IMG/VR virus record: IMGVR_UViG_2974767555_000001 | Coordinates: 1-64,000 of that record | Length of the DNA stretch: 64,000 bases | Strand: one strand, 5' to 3' | DNA from: a virus | Lineage: Duplodnaviria > Caudoviricetes | Part shown: positions 202 through 4,286 of the stretch, one piece after another | Layout: every line of letters starts with the position of its first letter | Position numbering within the stretch: position 1 is the first letter of the stretch | Position numbers and translations under genes: made by a program | Notes under the pieces: model-generated | Seen by the model: only the letters and a program-made list of their open reading frames with translations | Database searches by the model: none | What the model was told of the DNA's origin: nothing

Positions 202-861
202 ATGTCCGAATCGACTGATGCACCAACTGATGCCGTGGGCACCCTGATGGGTGAACCGGGGAAGCTGAAGGTCGCCGACCTGCACACGTTCCTGGGTAAC
301 CCCCGGCGCGGCAATATCGCCCGGATCGCGGAGTCTCTGGCGGTCAACGGGATGTACAAGCCGGTGGTGGTCAACAAGGGCACCCACACGGGTCGCCCGA
401 ACGAGGTGTTGGCCGGTAACCACACCCTGATGGCCGCAAGGGAATTGGGCTGGTCGGAGGTCAACGCCTGGGTCATCGACGTGGACGAGCACCAGGCCAA
501 GAAGATCGTCGCCGCCGACAACAGGACCGCTGACCTGGGCGAATACGACAACGACGCCATGATCGAGCTGCTGGGTTCGCTCGATGACCTGGAGGGCACC
601 GGGTATGACGCCGATGATCTGTCGGCGCTCCAGGACCTGGAGAACGACGGGTTGTGGGACAACGAAAACCCCTATGACGGGGGTGGTTCCGACCCTGGCG
701 ACCACTCTGACCAGGACAATCACAAGTTCTTCCCCAAGATCGACCTGCGCATCCCGCCGATGATGATGGACGCCTGGCGGGAGCTGCTCGACCGGTACAG
801 CGGCGAGGACGACGTGGACAAGCTGGAGGCCCACCTCAAGGCTCAGGGGGTGCTCCAGTGA
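202..861 (+). CDS. ParB/Srx-like N-terminal domain protein
   Basis: NPRRGN...GMYKPVVV...VLAGNHTLMAARELG...ADNR ParB-N motifs; AAGGAG RBS at 188-193. Confidence 0.85.
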   Translation: MSESTDAPTDAVGTLMGEPGKLKVADLHTFLGNPRRGNIARIAESLAVNGMYKPVVVNKGTHTGRPNEVLAGNHTLMAARELGWSEVNAWVIDVDEHQAKKIVAADNRTADLGEYDNDAMIELLGSLDDLEGTGYDADDLSALQDLENDGLWDNENPYDGGGSDPGDHSDQDNHKFFPKIDLRIPPMMMDAWRELLDRYSGEDDVDKLEAHLKAQGVLQ

Positions 862-995
862 CCTACACCCGCGCGGAACTGATGGCCCAGGCGCGCCGTC
901 ACGGTCACGGGTTCCGGTCGGGCGCTGTGGTGGCGGGATCGTTTGCTGCAGCGGTGATCCTGGTCGCGGCGGTCATCGTGGTGTCGGTGCTGTGA
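858..995 (+). CDS. Small single-pass membrane protein (45 aa)
   Basis: Read by hand: GTG 858 overlaps upstream TGA, TGA 993-995 overlaps next GTG; hydrophobic C-terminus AVVAGSFAAAVILVAAVIVVSVL. Confidence 0.6.
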   Translation: MTYTRAELMAQARRHGHGFRSGAVVAGSFAAAVILVAAVIVVSVL

Positions 996-2050
996 CCAGC
1001 TTCGATTCACCAGTGCCCGTCTATCCGGAGACCGGCAGGCGCGTGCTGCCAATGAATTTGCTGTGGTCGTACGTGTATGCGCGGAGTTTGGACCTGCGCA
1101 AGTTCCTCAACGGGCTTGCCGCAGACCCGATCCGGTTTTTCGCTGACTCCGGTGCTCACAGCGCGCGCACGCTGGGCGTCCACATCGACGTGCACGAATA
1201 CGCCGAATGGCTGTGCCAGCACAAGGACCTGTGCACGATCTACGCCAACCTCGACGTGATCGGCGCGCCCGACGCCACCCGGGCCAACCAGGACATCCTG
1301 GAATCGTATGGGCTGGACCCGATGCCGGTGTTCCACACGGGCGAGCCGTTCAGCGTCCTCGAGGACTACATCAAGGACGGGTACACCTACATCGCCCTCG
1401 GAAAGCTGCTCGGCAACAGCCAGAAGGACCTGACACCGTGGATCGCACGGTGTTTCGAGGTGGCCCAGGACCGTGCAGTGTTCCACGGCTTCGGTATGAC
1501 CGTGTGGGCGCAGATCAAGCGGTGGCCCTGGTACTCGGTCGATTCCAGCTCGTGGGTGGCCGGGGTGCGCTACGGCAGCGTCCGGTTGTTCGACAACGGG
1601 AAGTGGAAGGTCATCCAGCTCCGCGACCGGCAGGGGGTGCGGGACAACCTGGGCCTGCTCCGGTCGTACGGGCTGACCCCGCGCATGTTGACCAAGGAGG
1701 GGTACGACCGGCTGGCTGTGGCAGGGGCGTGCGCGGTCGCCCAGTACCGGGCCAGCGATTGGGTGTCGCAGAGGACCGGCACGGTCGTTCTGCCCCCCGG
1801 CAAGGGGTATCCGGCACCCGATTCCCACGCTGCAGACAAGATCATCAGGATTCAGGACGGTCAGCCGACCCTGACGACCGATCCCCACCGGTCGCACAGC
1901 GAGGGGCTGCATCAGTACCTGGCCAACACGGCATCGACCAACCACGGTTGGCACGCCGCTGGTCTGCAGCTGTACATCGCCGACAGCTCCACCACGTGGA
2001 CGCCCGCTGCGGCAGTCGGTATCGCCAAGGAGAACGGTCAGGATGTCTGA
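992..2050 (+). CDS. TGT-fold DNA guanine transglycosylase-like protein (DpdA-like)
   Basis: DSGAHS, NLDVIG, PVFH, HGFG, SVDSSSW motifs of TGT-like barrels; adjacent to queD/queE/folE. Confidence 0.78.
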   Translation: MTSFDSPVPVYPETGRRVLPMNLLWSYVYARSLDLRKFLNGLAADPIRFFADSGAHSARTLGVHIDVHEYAEWLCQHKDLCTIYANLDVIGAPDATRANQDILESYGLDPMPVFHTGEPFSVLEDYIKDGYTYIALGKLLGNSQKDLTPWIARCFEVAQDRAVFHGFGMTVWAQIKRWPWYSVDSSSWVAGVRYGSVRLFDNGKWKVIQLRDRQGVRDNLGLLRSYGLTPRMLTKEGYDRLAVAGACAVAQYRASDWVSQRTGTVVLPPGKGYPAPDSHAADKIIRIQDGQPTLTTDPHRSHSEGLHQYLANTASTNHGWHAAGLQLYIADSSTTWTPAAAVGIAKENGQDV

Positions 2051-2468
2051 GCACCGCATGACAATCACGATTGGCCCGCTGACCTGCGTGTTCGGCAACC
2101 ACAACAAGGCGATGGGTCTGAAGCTGCATTTCCACACTGCGGCGGTGTTTTTGGAGTATTCGGTCCCCGTTTCGGGGGTGCAGACCGCGAAACACTGGGG
2201 TGGCCACGGGTTTCCCAGCTTTGAGGCCACCAACGACGCCCTGCGTGACCGGGTGCGTGAGCTGACCGCCGCCCCGTTCGAGGACGCGACCAACGAGGAC
2301 GTGGCGTGGCGACTGTTCCAGGCCCTGAAGGGATTCCGTCACGGGTCGTGGGACCGCTACGGCGGCGACTACCGGCTGATCGGTCTGGACCTCGACGTGG
2401 TGGGGGTGCCCGACAGCATCGGCCACGACGACGGCACAACGCGATACACGATCAAGGAGACCAGCTGA
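2043..2468 (+). CDS. QueD-like T-fold paralogue lacking the catalytic Cys (possible DpdL-like CDG-modifying enzyme)
   Basis: FGNH...LHFHT aligns with QueD FSAGH...CTNVHGHT; TNEDVA aligns with QueD PTTEAIA. Confidence 0.6.
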   Translation: MSEHRMTITIGPLTCVFGNHNKAMGLKLHFHTAAVFLEYSVPVSGVQTAKHWGGHGFPSFEATNDALRDRVRELTAAPFEDATNEDVAWRLFQALKGFRHGSWDRYGGDYRLIGLDLDVVGVPDSIGHDDGTTRYTIKETS

Positions 2469-2938
2469 TGTACGGAAACCTGACCGCCACGGTGCGGCAC
2501 CACTTCTCTGCCGGTCATCGCATCCCCGGATTGCCTGGTGCAGGGGAGAAATGCACCAATGTCCACGGTCACACGTTCGGTGTGTCGTGGACGGTGGGGG
2601 TGCCATCGCTGGACGCCACGGTGGTGGAGTTTGGTGAGCTGAAGCGCGCCTTCCGGGGCTGGATCGATCAGCGCCTGGACCACGGGTTCATCGTCGGCAA
2701 GGACGACCTGGAGATGCTGGGTGTGCTGAAGCTGATGGGCAGCAAGCACTTCGTGACCGATAACCCGCCGACGACCGAGGCCATCGCCTCTGTGATCGCC
2801 CAGGCCAGCCAGGACCTGCTGTCTGGTGTCGTCCTGCTGTCGGTGGAGGTGACCGAGGGGCCGCACAACGCTGCCACGTGGCACAACCCGGCCAAGGTGT
2901 GGTCAGCCCAGGAGCTGGAAGGGATGGCGGGCTTCTGA
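2468..2938 (+). CDS. queD: 6-carboxy-5,6,7,8-tetrahydropterin synthase
   Basis: FSAGH, CTNVHGHT, LDHGF, PTTE motifs; ATG 2468 in TGATG overlap. Confidence 0.92.
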   Translation: MYGNLTATVRHHFSAGHRIPGLPGAGEKCTNVHGHTFGVSWTVGVPSLDATVVEFGELKRAFRGWIDQRLDHGFIVGKDDLEMLGVLKLMGSKHFVTDNPPTTEAIASVIAQASQDLLSGVVLLSVEVTEGPHNAATWHNPAKVWSAQELEGMAGF

Positions 2939-3657
2939 TGACCGACGACGCAATGGTGTTGCCGGTCAGCGAGGTGTTCGGCCCGACGATCCAGGGAGAG
3001 GGGCCGCACCAGGGGCGCGCGGTCCAGTTCGTCCGGTTGGGTGGCTGCAATCTGTCGTGCGACTGGTGCGACACCCCGTACACCTGGGACGGCAGCCGGT
3101 TCAACCTGCGGGAAGAGAACCCGCTGACGACGGTGGCCGACGTTCTGGCACGGGTGATTCCGTGGCTGACGGTGGTCATCTCTGGCGGGGAACCGCTGAT
3201 CCACCAGGCGAAACCGGCGTGGCAGGAGCTGCTGCACGGTCTGCACCAACAGAATTGCCGCATCCACGTCGAAACCAACGGGACGATCAACCCCAACGAC
3301 GTGACCCGGCGCTACGTCGAGCACTACTCGGTGTCGCCCAAGCTGCCGCACGCCGGGTCGCACAAGCGATCCCAGAACCCCGCGCTGGCCATCGGGTGGC
3401 GGCGCGGTAAGTGGCCGGTCGGCGTCGGGCGCGCGCTGAAGGTCGTGGTGCGCGACGGGGCCGATGTGTCGGCGGCGTTCGACCTGGCCGACGCCAACGC
3501 ATGGCCGCTTGACGAGGTGTGGGTGATGCCCGAGGGCACCACCACCGAGCAGCTGCAGGCCCGGTGGCCCGAGGTCGCCGAGACGGCTGCCCACTACGGC
3601 ATCAACGCATCTCATCGACTCCACGTCCTGGCGTGGGGGGATCGGAAGGGCACATGA
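2938..3657 (+). CDS. queE: 7-carboxy-7-deazaguanine synthase (radical SAM)
   Basis: EVFGPTIQGEG, GCNLSCDWCDT (CxxxCxxC), SGGEP, ETNGT, SPKL, RLHV motifs; TGATG start. Confidence 0.94.
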   Translation: MTDDAMVLPVSEVFGPTIQGEGPHQGRAVQFVRLGGCNLSCDWCDTPYTWDGSRFNLREENPLTTVADVLARVIPWLTVVISGGEPLIHQAKPAWQELLHGLHQQNCRIHVETNGTINPNDVTRRYVEHYSVSPKLPHAGSHKRSQNPALAIGWRRGKWPVGVGRALKVVVRDGADVSAAFDLADANAWPLDEVWVMPEGTTTEQLQARWPEVAETAAHYGINASHRLHVLAWGDRKGT

Positions 3658-4286
3658 CCGCGACCAACGGCCACGTCAAGACCTGGGGTGGGGACGAGCT
3701 GCCCCCGGTGCCCGTGGTGACCCCCGAGGCGCGCGCTGCCGACGCTGTGCAGCAACTGTTGGACGCGCTGGGGGTAGACGAGGGGGACCACACCGCACGG
3801 ACCCCGCAGCGGGTCGCCAAGGCGTGGAGGGAGATGCTGGCCGGGTACCGCGAGGACCCCGCCGATCACCTGGAGACGACGTTCTCGGCCCCCGGCAACC
3901 CGGGCCTGGTCATCGTGGACCGGATCGAGCTGCAGTCAACGTGTGCCCACCACATGCTCCCGTTCACCGGTCGTGCCACCGTGGCGTACCGGCCTGCCAA
4001 CGGTCAGTCCATCGTCGGGTTGTCCAAGATGGCGCGACTGGTGAACGGGTTCAGCCGACGCCTGCAGGTACAGGAGCGCATCGGTGCCCAGGTCGTGGAC
4101 GCGATCATGGAGCGGCTAAAGCCCGAGGGGGCAATGTGTCTGATCACCGCCAGCCACGACTGCATGAGGCTGCGCGGGGTGCGGGAGCCGGAAGCGGAGA
4201 CCACCACCGAGGCCCGCCGTGGTCTGCTGCTTGACCACGAGATCAGCCTGATTCACCTGCGGCACCTGGGGTCTGCCGCGCGATGA
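3654..4286 (+). CDS. folE: GTP cyclohydrolase I
   Basis: TPQRVAK, STCAHHMLPF, GLSKMAR, RLQVQER, HDCMRLRGV motifs; ATGA overlap at 3654. Confidence 0.95.
   Translation: MTATNGHVKTWGGDELPPVPVVTPEARAADAVQQLLDALGVDEGDHTARTPQRVAKAWREMLAGYREDPADHLETTFSAPGNPGLVIVDRIELQSTCAHHMLPFTGRATVAYRPANGQSIVGLSKMARLVNGFSRRLQVQERIGAQVVDAIMERLKPEGAMCLITASHDCMRLRGVREPEAETTTEARRGLLLDHEISLIHLRHLGSAAR

Follow-up and report, generated by a model that had tools for sequence, protein, structure and literature searches.

T-fold enzymes bind pterins and purines and assemble as homo-oligomeric barrels whose active sites lie where subunits meet; among them, QueF and QueF-L bind 7-deazaguanines, and QueF-L works on preQ0 that is already in tRNA. 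We know of no demonstrated case of decarboxylation by a T-fold enzyme. The route by which dDG is synthesized in phage DNA is still unproven, with the T-fold protein DpdL as a candidate only. Phage phiST, which has DpdL and is without QueC, has its G fully replaced by dDG; the decarboxylase activity of DpdL is a proposal only, a heterologous test in E. coli having failed, and Hutinet et al. took their DpdL model to favor the free base as the substrate (PMC10516641). DpdL matches PF01242 at 99.9% in HHpred (PMC10516641).

The window analyzed here, a stretch of 64,000 nucleotides (positions 1 to 64,000 of IMGVR_UViG_2974767555_000001), comes from a Cluster-Y-type mycobacteriophage and carries the operon listed below. 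The gene of interest lies between dpdA and queD and is called gp4 here, after its homologue in phage Bipper.

202..861, + strand: ParB-like protein, the first gene of the operon (PF02195), kept 5' of dpdA in related loci
992..2050, + strand: DpdA-type DNA guanine transglycosylase (phrog_887, 5e-63; 36% identity to CAjan/9g DpdA, residues 17-221)
2043..2468, + strand: gp4 homologue, a 141-aa T-fold protein (ORF, Shine-Dalgarno box, Bipper match, AF2 model, T-fold matches)
2468..2938, + strand: QueD (CPH4 synthase), canonical, with C-T-N-V-H-G-H (PF01242, 6e-21)
2938..3657, + strand: QueE (CDG synthase, radical SAM) (phrog_2076, 7e-71; PF04055)
3651..4286, + strand: FolE (GTP cyclohydrolase I) (PF01227, 1.5e-55)

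Several parallels link gp4 to DpdL (phiST CGPG_00067; Hutinet et al. 2023, PMC10516641). Both are small T-fold proteins (141 aa in gp4 versus 114 aa in DpdL) whose genes accompany those for DpdA, FolE, QueD, and QueE in phages without QueC; of 10 gp4 phage genomes with a completeness of ≥90%, 9 have none. In both, strand 2 opens with an HxH, a catalytic Cys is lacking, and helix B begins with a putative acidic anchor (TNE in gp4, SCE in DpdL), and both are found in the same slot between orthologous flanks in high-GC phages. However, there is no detectable sequence relationship between the two: hhalign gives 1% for DpdL and gp4, as against 92.5% (E of 5e-7) for DpdL and QueD as a control. Hence, an earlier reading of this DNA from its letters and open reading frames (the sequence-only reading), which had suggested a divergent DpdL-like enzyme, does not hold as a statement of family membership. 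It was right that the motif departs from the DpdL signature: LxxxHRHxF is missing from gp4, which reads G-L-K-L-H-F-H-T-A, and the strand 1 His of DpdL is an Asn. Further, unlike DpdL, gp4 has an invariant D124/H128 loop and a G-x-H-G-[YF]-P-S-F motif.

A conserved gene between dpdA and queD

The gp4 ORF runs from an ATG at 2043 to a TGA at 2466-2468, with an AAGGAG Shine-Dalgarno box 10 nt 5' of the start; it shares 8 nt with the 3' end of dpdA and 1 nt with the beginning of queD. Its product is 79% identical to Bipper gp4, which is annotated as a "hypothetical protein" and goes without mention in the main text of PMC10516641, a paper whose supplementary tables list the DpdL phages. There are 36 close and 76 representative homologues, and the family comprises about 100 relatives, found only in phages and prophages of actinobacteria and in metagenomes from soil. 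Fusions, to DpdA or otherwise, and longer forms were looked for without success; relatives of 170-272 aa also exist, and their extensions contain no Pfam domain.

Neither Pfam nor PHROGs has a match for gp4. Among 98 relatives Pfam returned no family match, only noise such as DUF131 at an E of ~0.03 and one QueF match at 0.05; PF01242 does not match gp4 or any of these relatives at E of ≤1, PF14489 and PF02152 have no match in the family, and a profile search of PDB sequences with gp4 gave chance matches only (E of >0.5). The lack of any database annotation and of a Pfam or PHROG family is what might be expected of a degenerate, inactive QueD duplicate or of a chance ORF without a role. Against this, ten polar residues are invariant among ~100 homologues that are 31-79% identical, the position in the operon is fixed across at least three deep DpdA clades, and the fold is predicted confidently. 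The pattern of conservation refutes such a reading in practice; gp4 is a genuine conserved gene.

Predicted fold and conserved residues

The AF2 model of gp4 (pLDDT 92, pTM 0.86) has a beta-beta-alpha-alpha-beta-beta order, with strands at residues 6-21, 26-41, 111-120, and 132-138 and helices at 61-74 and 84-96, and thus matches a T-fold unit, in which a pair of helices separates the first two of four antiparallel strands from the last two. In a structure search of 48,161 PDB representative chains, the best 22 matches are all T-fold proteins (Z of 10.5-7.0). In a second structure comparison all 50 listed entries are again T-fold proteins (Z of 11.2-8.2), the top eight being without exception PTPS/QueD (Z of 11.2-9.8). 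Foldseek comparisons with T-fold structures give probabilities of 0.99-1.0, ESM Atlas and BFVD agree with the assignment, and the T-fold enzymes that head the PDB matches have pterins or 7-deazaguanines as ligands. The T-fold membership claimed earlier, for which structure prediction had been named as the check, is therefore confirmed by the predicted model, and gp4 belongs to a T-fold family that had not been described before.

The best structural neighbors, QueD/PTPS (E. coli QueD, 4NTK; P. horikoshii PTPS, 2DJ6), align with gp4 over 100-109 residues with an rmsd of 2.8-3.2 Å and 12-18% identity, and the HxH and the putative T-x-E anchor would take the same positions. Nevertheless, a profile of 24 QueD sequences reaches only 3.4% over 19 columns in hhalign, and with neither Pfam nor PHROGs giving a match, the label of QueD paralogue has to be dropped as family membership. 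The first His ligand of QueD, the catalytic Cys of its CxxxHGH motif, and its Asp-His dyad are all missing from gp4. The replacement of this Cys by Gly, as described earlier, is apt as an alignment, in which Gly25 pairs with the catalytic Cys, but not structurally, as the 13-residue Cys loop between strands 1 and 2 of QueD has shrunk to a 4-residue turn. QueF/QueF-L and DHNA/FolX also share the fold (Z of 9.7-8.0), with QueF-L at a Z of 9.2-8.7 and DHNA/FolX nearly as near to gp4 as PTPS (Z of 9.7 versus 11.2). The catalytic Cys with which QueF and QueF-L form a thioimide with preQ0 has no counterpart in gp4, most gp4 genomes have no source of their substrate preQ0, and the Lys/Tyr/Glu set of DHNA is not recognizable in gp4 by profile.

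The segments that might build the active site, together with an insertion, are as follows.

2097..2105, + strand: N19-H20-N21, end of strand 1; N19 and N21 invariant, H20 lineage specific
2127..2135, + strand: H29-F-H31, start of strand 2; HxH invariant in the alignment, strand position from the AF2 model
2169..2198, + strand: V43-W52, an insertion of ~10 residues in the loop between strand 2 and helix A (alignment A1)
2289..2297, + strand: T83-N84-E85, N terminus of helix B; invariant, with hhalign pairing
2412..2429, + strand: D124-S-I-G-H128-D129, loop between strands 3 and 4; D124 and H128 invariant in 98 sequences

In all 46 related loci checked, the invariant residues are N19, N21, H29-x-H31, T83-N84-E85, D124, H128, and Y135; across 98 family sequences, only D124 and H128 never vary. 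By the topology of the AF2 model and the alignments, the invariant polar residues all lie at one edge of the sheet: where strand 1 ends, where strand 2 and helix B begin, and in the loop joining strands 3 and 4. The alignments contain no conserved Cys at any position, which bears out the earlier statement that a catalytic Cys is lacking. The strings on which the sequence-only reading relied are all present (F17-G-N-H20, L28-H29-F-H31-T, T83-N-E-D-V-A, and K50-H-W-G-G-H55-G), but its view that three QueD-like His are kept fails at the first of them. Position 20 holds a His in this phage and Bipper alone, with V, Q, A, T, or R in the others, while a gap-free alignment of FGNxN with FSAGH suggests that the invariant Asn21 occupies the position of the first Zn-ligand His of QueD. 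The third invariant His of the gp4 family is H128, in the strand 3-4 loop. As for the supposedly extra KHWGGHG segment, residues 43-52 are indeed inserted, though only in this phage, Bipper, and one further relative in alignment A1 (pLDDT of the block, 85), whereas the G-x-H-G-[YF]-P-S-F motif is family-wide.

For the T-fold Glu that had been placed in TNEDVA, E85 is the candidate: TNE is invariant and is the sole gp4 segment that hhalign pairs with PTTE of QueD and SCE of DpdL. Judged from these pairings, T83-N84-E85 is a putative anchor for a 2-amino-4-oxo-pyrimidine ring. By strand position, rather than by superposition, H29-x-H31 would be the topological equivalent of the HxH metal ligands of QueD/PTPS/DpdL, and the topology points to a candidate metal site formed by H29, H31, and H128/D124. 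In profile comparisons, the set N19, N21, H29, H31, E85, D124, H128, and Y135 fits no known T-fold family.

Occupants of the slot after dpdA

The operon follows the pattern ParB-DpdA-X-QueD-QueE-FolE, where X is QueC, a gp4-type protein, or a genuine DpdL. In a locus-context survey that omits the most distant gp4 homologues (P0060-P0101), the slot after dpdA is occupied, among unique DpdA rows, by gp4 in 24, QueC in 14, and DpdL in 4, and it is empty in a single row from an incomplete contig. In Rosebush, Saguaro, Quesadilla, Finch, Sour, Sonali, and many phages from metagenomes, it is QueC that directly follows dpdA and precedes queD. This preQ0 synthase (PF06508) shares the slot with gp4 but is a PP-loop ATPase of unrelated fold, and its ATP-dependent chemistry lies beyond a T-fold protein of 141 aa. 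Every gp4 locus encodes canonical QueD, QueE, and FolE. gp4 is no replacement for QueD, since a canonical queD gene always stands beside it; in three loci where it seemed to be missing (L059, L062, and L014), the apparent gap in fact holds a clear PF01242 QueD, and the QueD at 2468..2938 is the only PF01242 match in the whole genome of this phage.

No QueC was found in the 99%-complete genome of this phage. Supply of QueC by the host was considered and rejected for M. smegmatis, which reportedly lacks the preQ0 pathway (PMC6884629), and a true QueC is absent from 4 of 7 prophage hosts. gp4 and QueC are mostly mutually exclusive; two genomes depart from this, one with both genes in tandem (L056, in the order DpdA-gp4-QueC-QueD) and one, complete, with the two 35 kb apart (G006). 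Hence, gp4 is not strictly an alternative to QueC.

In all loci with upstream sequence, gp4 lies directly 3' of dpdA, bar one contig (L018/L053) with an extra ~700 nt between them. This constant adjacency would fit equally well with gp4 being a partner of DpdA, i.e., a T-fold base-binding subunit that captures CDG, or whichever 7-deazaguanine is made, and passes it to DpdA or shifts the base specificity of DpdA, with dCDG then in the DNA. Indeed, in the rearranged operon of L014 gp4 stays directly 3' of dpdA although the queD-queE-folE block has moved, in ~25 of 33 loci a start codon overlaps or directly adjoins the stop of dpdA, and gp4 is retained beside QueC in the two genomes that have both. 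A DpdA on its own is able to insert CDG at a low level (PMC10516641, Table 2), and a helper could boost this efficiency. However, invariant His, Asp, Glu, and Asn residues typify a catalytic or metal pocket and not a protein interface, and no gp4-DpdA fusion was found. We also considered and rejected the gp4-linked DpdAs being one special clade: they are spread over at least three deep and very divergent clades, and their nearest relatives use QueC without gp4, as in Rosebush, the DNA of which contains dPreQ0. Further, 4-nt overlaps are usual throughout these operons (e.g., Rosebush dpdA-queC), so the dpdA-gp4 coupling is not specific to gp4. We regard a partner role as unlikely. The G006-type DpdA was also compared with phiST DpdA3; BLASTP shows no similarity, and it is therefore left unclassified.

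True DpdL occupies the slot in the high-GC contigs L076, L092, and L093, and the true DpdLs of L076, L090, L092, L093, and L133 carry the motif L-A-x-x-H-R-H-L-F. The flanks of DpdL in L076 and of gp4 in L005 are orthologous (45% identity for ParB, 56% for DpdA, 42% for QueE, and 48% for FolE), which indicates that gp4 and DpdL displaced each other in place. The DpdA nearest to that of L005 is the one from L076, ahead of any other gp4-linked DpdA, and rows with gp4 and with DpdL are intermixed within one DpdA clade. A tblastn search with DpdL against 50,697 phage records matched no actinophage, the matches being to phages of other hosts, mostly Gram-negative.

Proposed role of gp4

Since gp4 sits in the slot of QueC and DpdL, it probably finishes the unusual guanine substitute of the phage DNA. 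We propose, with a probability of roughly one half, that gp4 is a metal-dependent CDG-tailoring enzyme that takes on the task suggested for DpdL, probably decarboxylating CDG to 7-deazaguanine, without belonging to the DpdL family. As to the substrate, metal site, reaction, and final DNA base, we infer the following scheme. In the 7-deazaguanine DNA-modification pathway gp4 would act between QueE and DpdA, binding CDG through the T83-N84-E85 anchor in the manner in which T-fold enzymes bind pterins and purines. With a metal coordinated by H29, H31, and H128/D124, it would remove the 7-carboxyl group from CDG, and DpdA would exchange the resulting 7-deazaguanine for guanine in the phage DNA, giving dDG. 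The role proposed for DpdL would in this way have been reached by a separate T-fold lineage. The CDG-modifying role entertained by the sequence-only reading thus draws support from the slot shared with QueC and DpdL, from the exchange with DpdL between orthologous flanks, and from QueC being almost always missing where gp4 occurs, even as membership in the DpdL family falls away.

gp4 represents a second, unrelated-looking T-fold family that takes the place of DpdL and QueC in one operon, making a clear case of three genes, non-homologous or barely homologous, that rotate through one operon slot. The proposal amounts to a prediction of the base in the DNA of an entire group of phages and prophages of actinobacteria, which bears on restriction resistance, sequencing, and cloning, and offers annotators a function for a gene labelled "hypothetical protein." Family members are present in available phages (Bipper, Cracklewink, Nadezda, and this phage) that are engineerable and grown on M. 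smegmatis; with culturable phages on a host reported to be without the preQ0 pathway, the step after CDG is therefore directly testable.

The order of events might also be reversed, with DpdA inserting CDG and gp4 converting dCDG in the polymer, by decarboxylation or otherwise. This would parallel QueF-L, a structural neighbor of gp4, and is compatible with the low-level acceptance of CDG by DpdA enzymes, the adjacency of gp4 and dpdA, and the coexistence of gp4 and QueC. Nevertheless, we consider it distinctly improbable: no basic patch or nucleic-acid-binding motif was identified from the gp4 sequence, the protein is small, its conserved loops are acidic, and Hutinet et al. argued that DpdL works on the free base.

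Another, rather unlikely, possibility is that gp4 runs a different and perhaps new reaction on CDG or on a pterin intermediate (H2NTP/CPH4), yielding a base that is neither dDG nor dCDG. Its active-site residue set is unlike that of any known T-fold family, DHNA/FolX is structurally almost as near as PTPS, and the coexistence with QueC in two genomes means that competition for one end product is not required. However, chemistry on H2NTP or CPH4 would leave unexplained why it is just in the presence of gp4 or DpdL that QueC can be dispensed with, and the in-place swap with DpdL argues for a shared job. Moreover, the 141-aa protein has no recognizable ATP, NADPH, or SAM site, and its chemistry is therefore limited to cofactor-free or metal-assisted steps. 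We give a similarly low likelihood to gp4 being no decarboxylase at all and acting on CDG, or on dCDG within DNA, by a reaction new to the T-fold enzymes; if so, a 7-deazaguanine derivative so far unseen in DNA would be present in the mycobacteriophages of Cluster Y and in the related prophages of actinobacteria.

The left-end operon and the gp4 family

At 64 kb, the window makes up the left part of a mycobacteriophage genome of 75,687 bp (completeness rating 99%). Identity is 97.6% with phage Nadezda and about 80% with Bipper and Cracklewink, both of Cluster Y. Ahead of the terminase and portal genes, the window carries the following genes.

Left-end operon of the window
202-861, ParB-like gene
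about 858-980, small ORF between the ParB-like gene and dpdA (Bipper gp2, "hypothetical protein")
992-2050, DpdA
2043-2468, + strand, target ORF (gp4 in Bipper, "hypothetical protein")
2468-2938, QueD
2938-3657, QueE
3651-4286, FolE

The 141-residue target ORF, here called gp4, is preceded at 10 nt by an AAGGAG box; it and dpdA overlap by 8 nt at the dpdA stop, and it has one base in common with the queD start. It and all the motifs quoted in the sequence-only reading are present. In the preceding DpdA, only the first ~250 residues align with those of other phage groups (Rosebush, CAjan, and 9g); the C-terminal ~100 residues (about 250-352) are covered in the phage collection only by Nadezda, Bipper, and Cracklewink, all of which possess gp4.

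gp4 is a real gene. A word-indexed search recovered 36 homologues of it, none annotated, and HMMER, run exhaustively over 1.84 billion representatives, gave 76 clusters, of which 56 reached E<=1e-10. D124 and H128 never vary in a 98-sequence alignment, in which conservation is 90% or higher at N19, N21, M24, L26, H29, H31, G56, P58, F60, T63, T83, N84, E85, G127, and Y135; the conserved residues are kept in 46/46 extracted genomic copies. The first of the three proposed His ligands (position 20) drops out of this set, being His only in the window phage and Bipper and V, Q, A, T, or R elsewhere. The supposed extra segment proved to be in part an insertion of about 10 residues (43-52) that, apart from the window, occurs only in Bipper and one other relative, while G-x-H-G-[YF]-P-S-F is a motif of the whole family.

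Fold and putative site

The AlphaFold2 model of gp4 (36-sequence alignment; pLDDT 92, pTM 0.86) has the order strand, strand, helix, helix, short helix, strand, strand. Foldseek against the PDB returned only T-fold proteins as top matches (PTPS, DHNA, uricase, QueF-L, and GTP cyclohydrolase I), with probabilities of 0.99-1.0, yet with E values of only ~1e-3 and TM scores of 0.4-0.55. In a Foldseek-independent scan of 48,161 chains, ranks 1-22 were T-fold proteins (PTPS 2DJ6, Z 10.5; E. coli QueD, 9.7; QueD2, 9.3; DHNA, 9.6-8.4), with unrelated folds appearing from Z 6. A second structural ranking placed eight PTPS/QueD entries first (Z 11.2-9.8, identity 12-18%), followed by DHNA (Z 9.7, identity 11%), and BFVD and the ESM Atlas agree with the assignment. 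By its model and structural matches, gp4 is therefore a T-fold protein nearest the PTPS/QueD branch, with a lead over DHNA of only about one Z unit.

Sequence methods give no link to the QueD or DpdL families, to which the sequence-only reading had tied the ORF. Neither gp4 nor any relative matched Pfam or PHROG. Hhalign with profiles of gp4 (98 sequences), QueD (24 sequences, drawn from those same loci and from phiST), and DpdL (phiST CGPG_00067 and ten phage homologues) gave 3.4% for gp4 versus QueD and 1% for gp4 versus DpdL; the DpdL versus QueD control gave 92.5% (E 5e-7, 105 columns). The single best local alignment in both gp4 comparisons falls on the same element, gp4 D-A-T-N-E-D-V-A, which pairs with QueD P-P-T-T-E-A-I-A and DpdL S-C-E-S-I-A; the earlier pairing of TNEDVA with the QueD motif gains support from this, albeit without significance.

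H29 and H31 stand at the start of strand 2, topologically the place of the HGH/HRH in QueD and DpdL. The strand-1 ligand His of those proteins is replaced by Asn21, and the 13-residue loop that bears the Cys in QueD is a 4-residue turn in gp4. From strand alternation in a sequential antiparallel sheet, the following residues would lie at one sheet edge, as a single, putative pocket requires.

Residues of the putative pocket
N19, N21: end of strand 1
H29, H31: start of strand 2
D118: end of strand 3
D124, H128, D129: strand 3-4 loop
T83-E85: N-terminus of helix B

One operon slot shared by gp4, QueC, and DpdL

Context mapping by tblastn and Pfam covered 21 viral, 7 genomic, and 18 metagenomic loci, the genomic ones being prophages in Gordonia, Streptomyces, Nonomuraea, Spongiactinospora, Kibdelosporangium, and Lentzea. 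The order ParB-DpdA-gp4-QueD-QueE-FolE holds nearly throughout. Canonical QueD is present in every gp4 locus, and gp4 is therefore ruled out as a QueD substitute. In all loci with upstream sequence, gp4 adjoins dpdA on its 3' side, bar one contig (L018/L053) with about 700 nt between them; even a rearranged locus (L014, QueD-QueE-FolE-ParB-DpdA-gp4) keeps the adjacency. Ahead of this rearranged operon (L014:2165-6411) stands a gene whose product has a YAcAr/SLOG-family domain (PF10686, 2e-12). Two tandem DpdA paralogues, 42-47% identical to the window DpdA, lie upstream of gp4 in three loci (L011:2552-4332, L013:132-1810, and L025:3973-5771), the last with three ParB-like matches besides.

QueC fills the slot between dpdA and queD in annotated actinophages that have no gp4 (Rosebush, Saguaro, Quesadilla, Finch, Sour, and Sonali). 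Because many loci are fragments, QueC absence was counted only for near-complete genomes: QueC was not found in the window phage's own genome (99% complete) or in 9/10 gp4-bearing viral records at least 90% complete. True QueC is also missing in 4/7 prophage hosts. According to Hutinet et al. 2019 (PMC6884629), M. smegmatis is without a preQ0 pathway, and Bipper, which "is only missing QueC," "could be modified by" CDG.

There are two exceptions. In one complete genome (G006; L005, L044:6688-7512), a genuine QueC (PF06508, 6e-58) lies on the other strand, 35 kb from the DpdA-gp4-QueD-QueE-FolE cluster at L005, and a soil metagenome contig (L056, 22-2016) has DpdA-gp4-QueC-QueD in tandem, the only case of gp4 and QueC side by side. 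Both gp4 copies keep the conserved residues, save H55, which is Arg in G006. Such genomes are what an evolutionary intermediate would look like if gain of gp4 preceded loss of QueC; equally, they caution against reading gp4 as nothing more than "instead of QueC." This coexistence and the unbroken dpdA-gp4 adjacency favor the main rival reading, that gp4 is a partner or specificity factor of DpdA, which we regard as unlikely. In the slot of another contig, L097, a QueC-like ORF (G030:C1:3706-4059) matches only QueC-profile positions 95-209 (E 6e-12) and may be a truncated or divergent QueC.

A QueE-anchored scan (alignment A3) classified 79 new loci, with DpdA-DpdL-QueD-QueE-FolE or a close variant in three high-GC contigs (L076, L092, and L093; GC 0.69-0.72) and in the lower-GC L090 and L133.

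DpdL ORFs of the high-GC contigs
L076:2665-2979, DpdL
L092:4280-4612, DpdL
L093:1328-1645, DpdL

All five DpdL ORFs have L-A-x-x-H-R-H-L-F, the published signature LxxxHRHxF (PMC10516641). A DpdL tblastn of the phage collection matched no actinobacterial phage; with genuine DpdL in high-GC viral contigs, DpdL may therefore reach beyond the published set. Against the gp4 phage L005, the DpdL contig L076 shows identities of 45% (ParB), 56% (DpdA), 42% (QueE), and 48% (FolE), and the L005 DpdA is nearer to that of L076 than to any other gp4-linked DpdA (44-48%).

In a FastTree of 43 unique DpdA rows, gp4-type and DpdL-type rows interleave in one clade (local support 99), with L076 sister to L005/L007 (support 90), and in three other parts gp4-type rows stand beside QueC-type rows. 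IQ-TREE on 32 rows agrees with this as regards QueC: the group of Rosebush, Finch, Saguaro, and Quesadilla has as its sister L056 (gp4 plus QueC) with L008, L010, and L028 (gp4 only; support 100/99). Per unique DpdA row, the slot holds gp4 in 24, QueC in 14, and DpdL in 4, and it is empty in 1 (L119, whose contig has a completeness rating of 41%); these counts are descriptive rather than statistical because DpdA rows are related to one another. At L119:3647-5279, L083:3734-6193, and L105:1732-4851, queD directly follows dpdA (in L105 with only a 72-residue ORF between), without QueC, gp4, or DpdL at the locus; these are fragments (14-41% complete), and QueC could lie elsewhere.

Proposed role of gp4

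Among the ligands of T-fold enzymes are pterins and 7-deazaguanines. CDG is the end point of the pathway upstream of gp4, and gp4 alternates with QueC, the normal CDG consumer, and DpdL, the proposed CDG decarboxylase. No ATP, NADPH, or SAM site is recognizable in the 141-residue T-fold, which leaves only cofactor-free or metal-assisted steps as its chemistry. In phiST, which has DpdL and no QueC, all G is replaced by dDG (PMC10516641). As the most economical reading, we propose, at about even odds (roughly 0.5), that gp4 does the job of DpdL: it would take CDG and remove its carboxyl to give 7-deazaguanine, at a putative site built from H29, H31, H128/D124, and E85. That gp4 instead catalyzes a different reaction is unlikely, slightly more so than the partner reading, and the same decarboxylation acting on dCDG already embedded in DNA is less likely still.

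We found no paper describing the gp4 family. The missing QueC of Bipper was noted in 2019 with no comment on gp4 (PMC6884629), and the main text of the 2023 DpdL paper has no mention of Bipper or any mycobacteriophage in this context (PMC10516641). What appears to be new is the gp4 family, together with its set of residues and the way it rotates with QueC and DpdL through a single slot; a T-fold gene for tailoring, set in a DpdA operon that lacks QueC, is of a kind already known.
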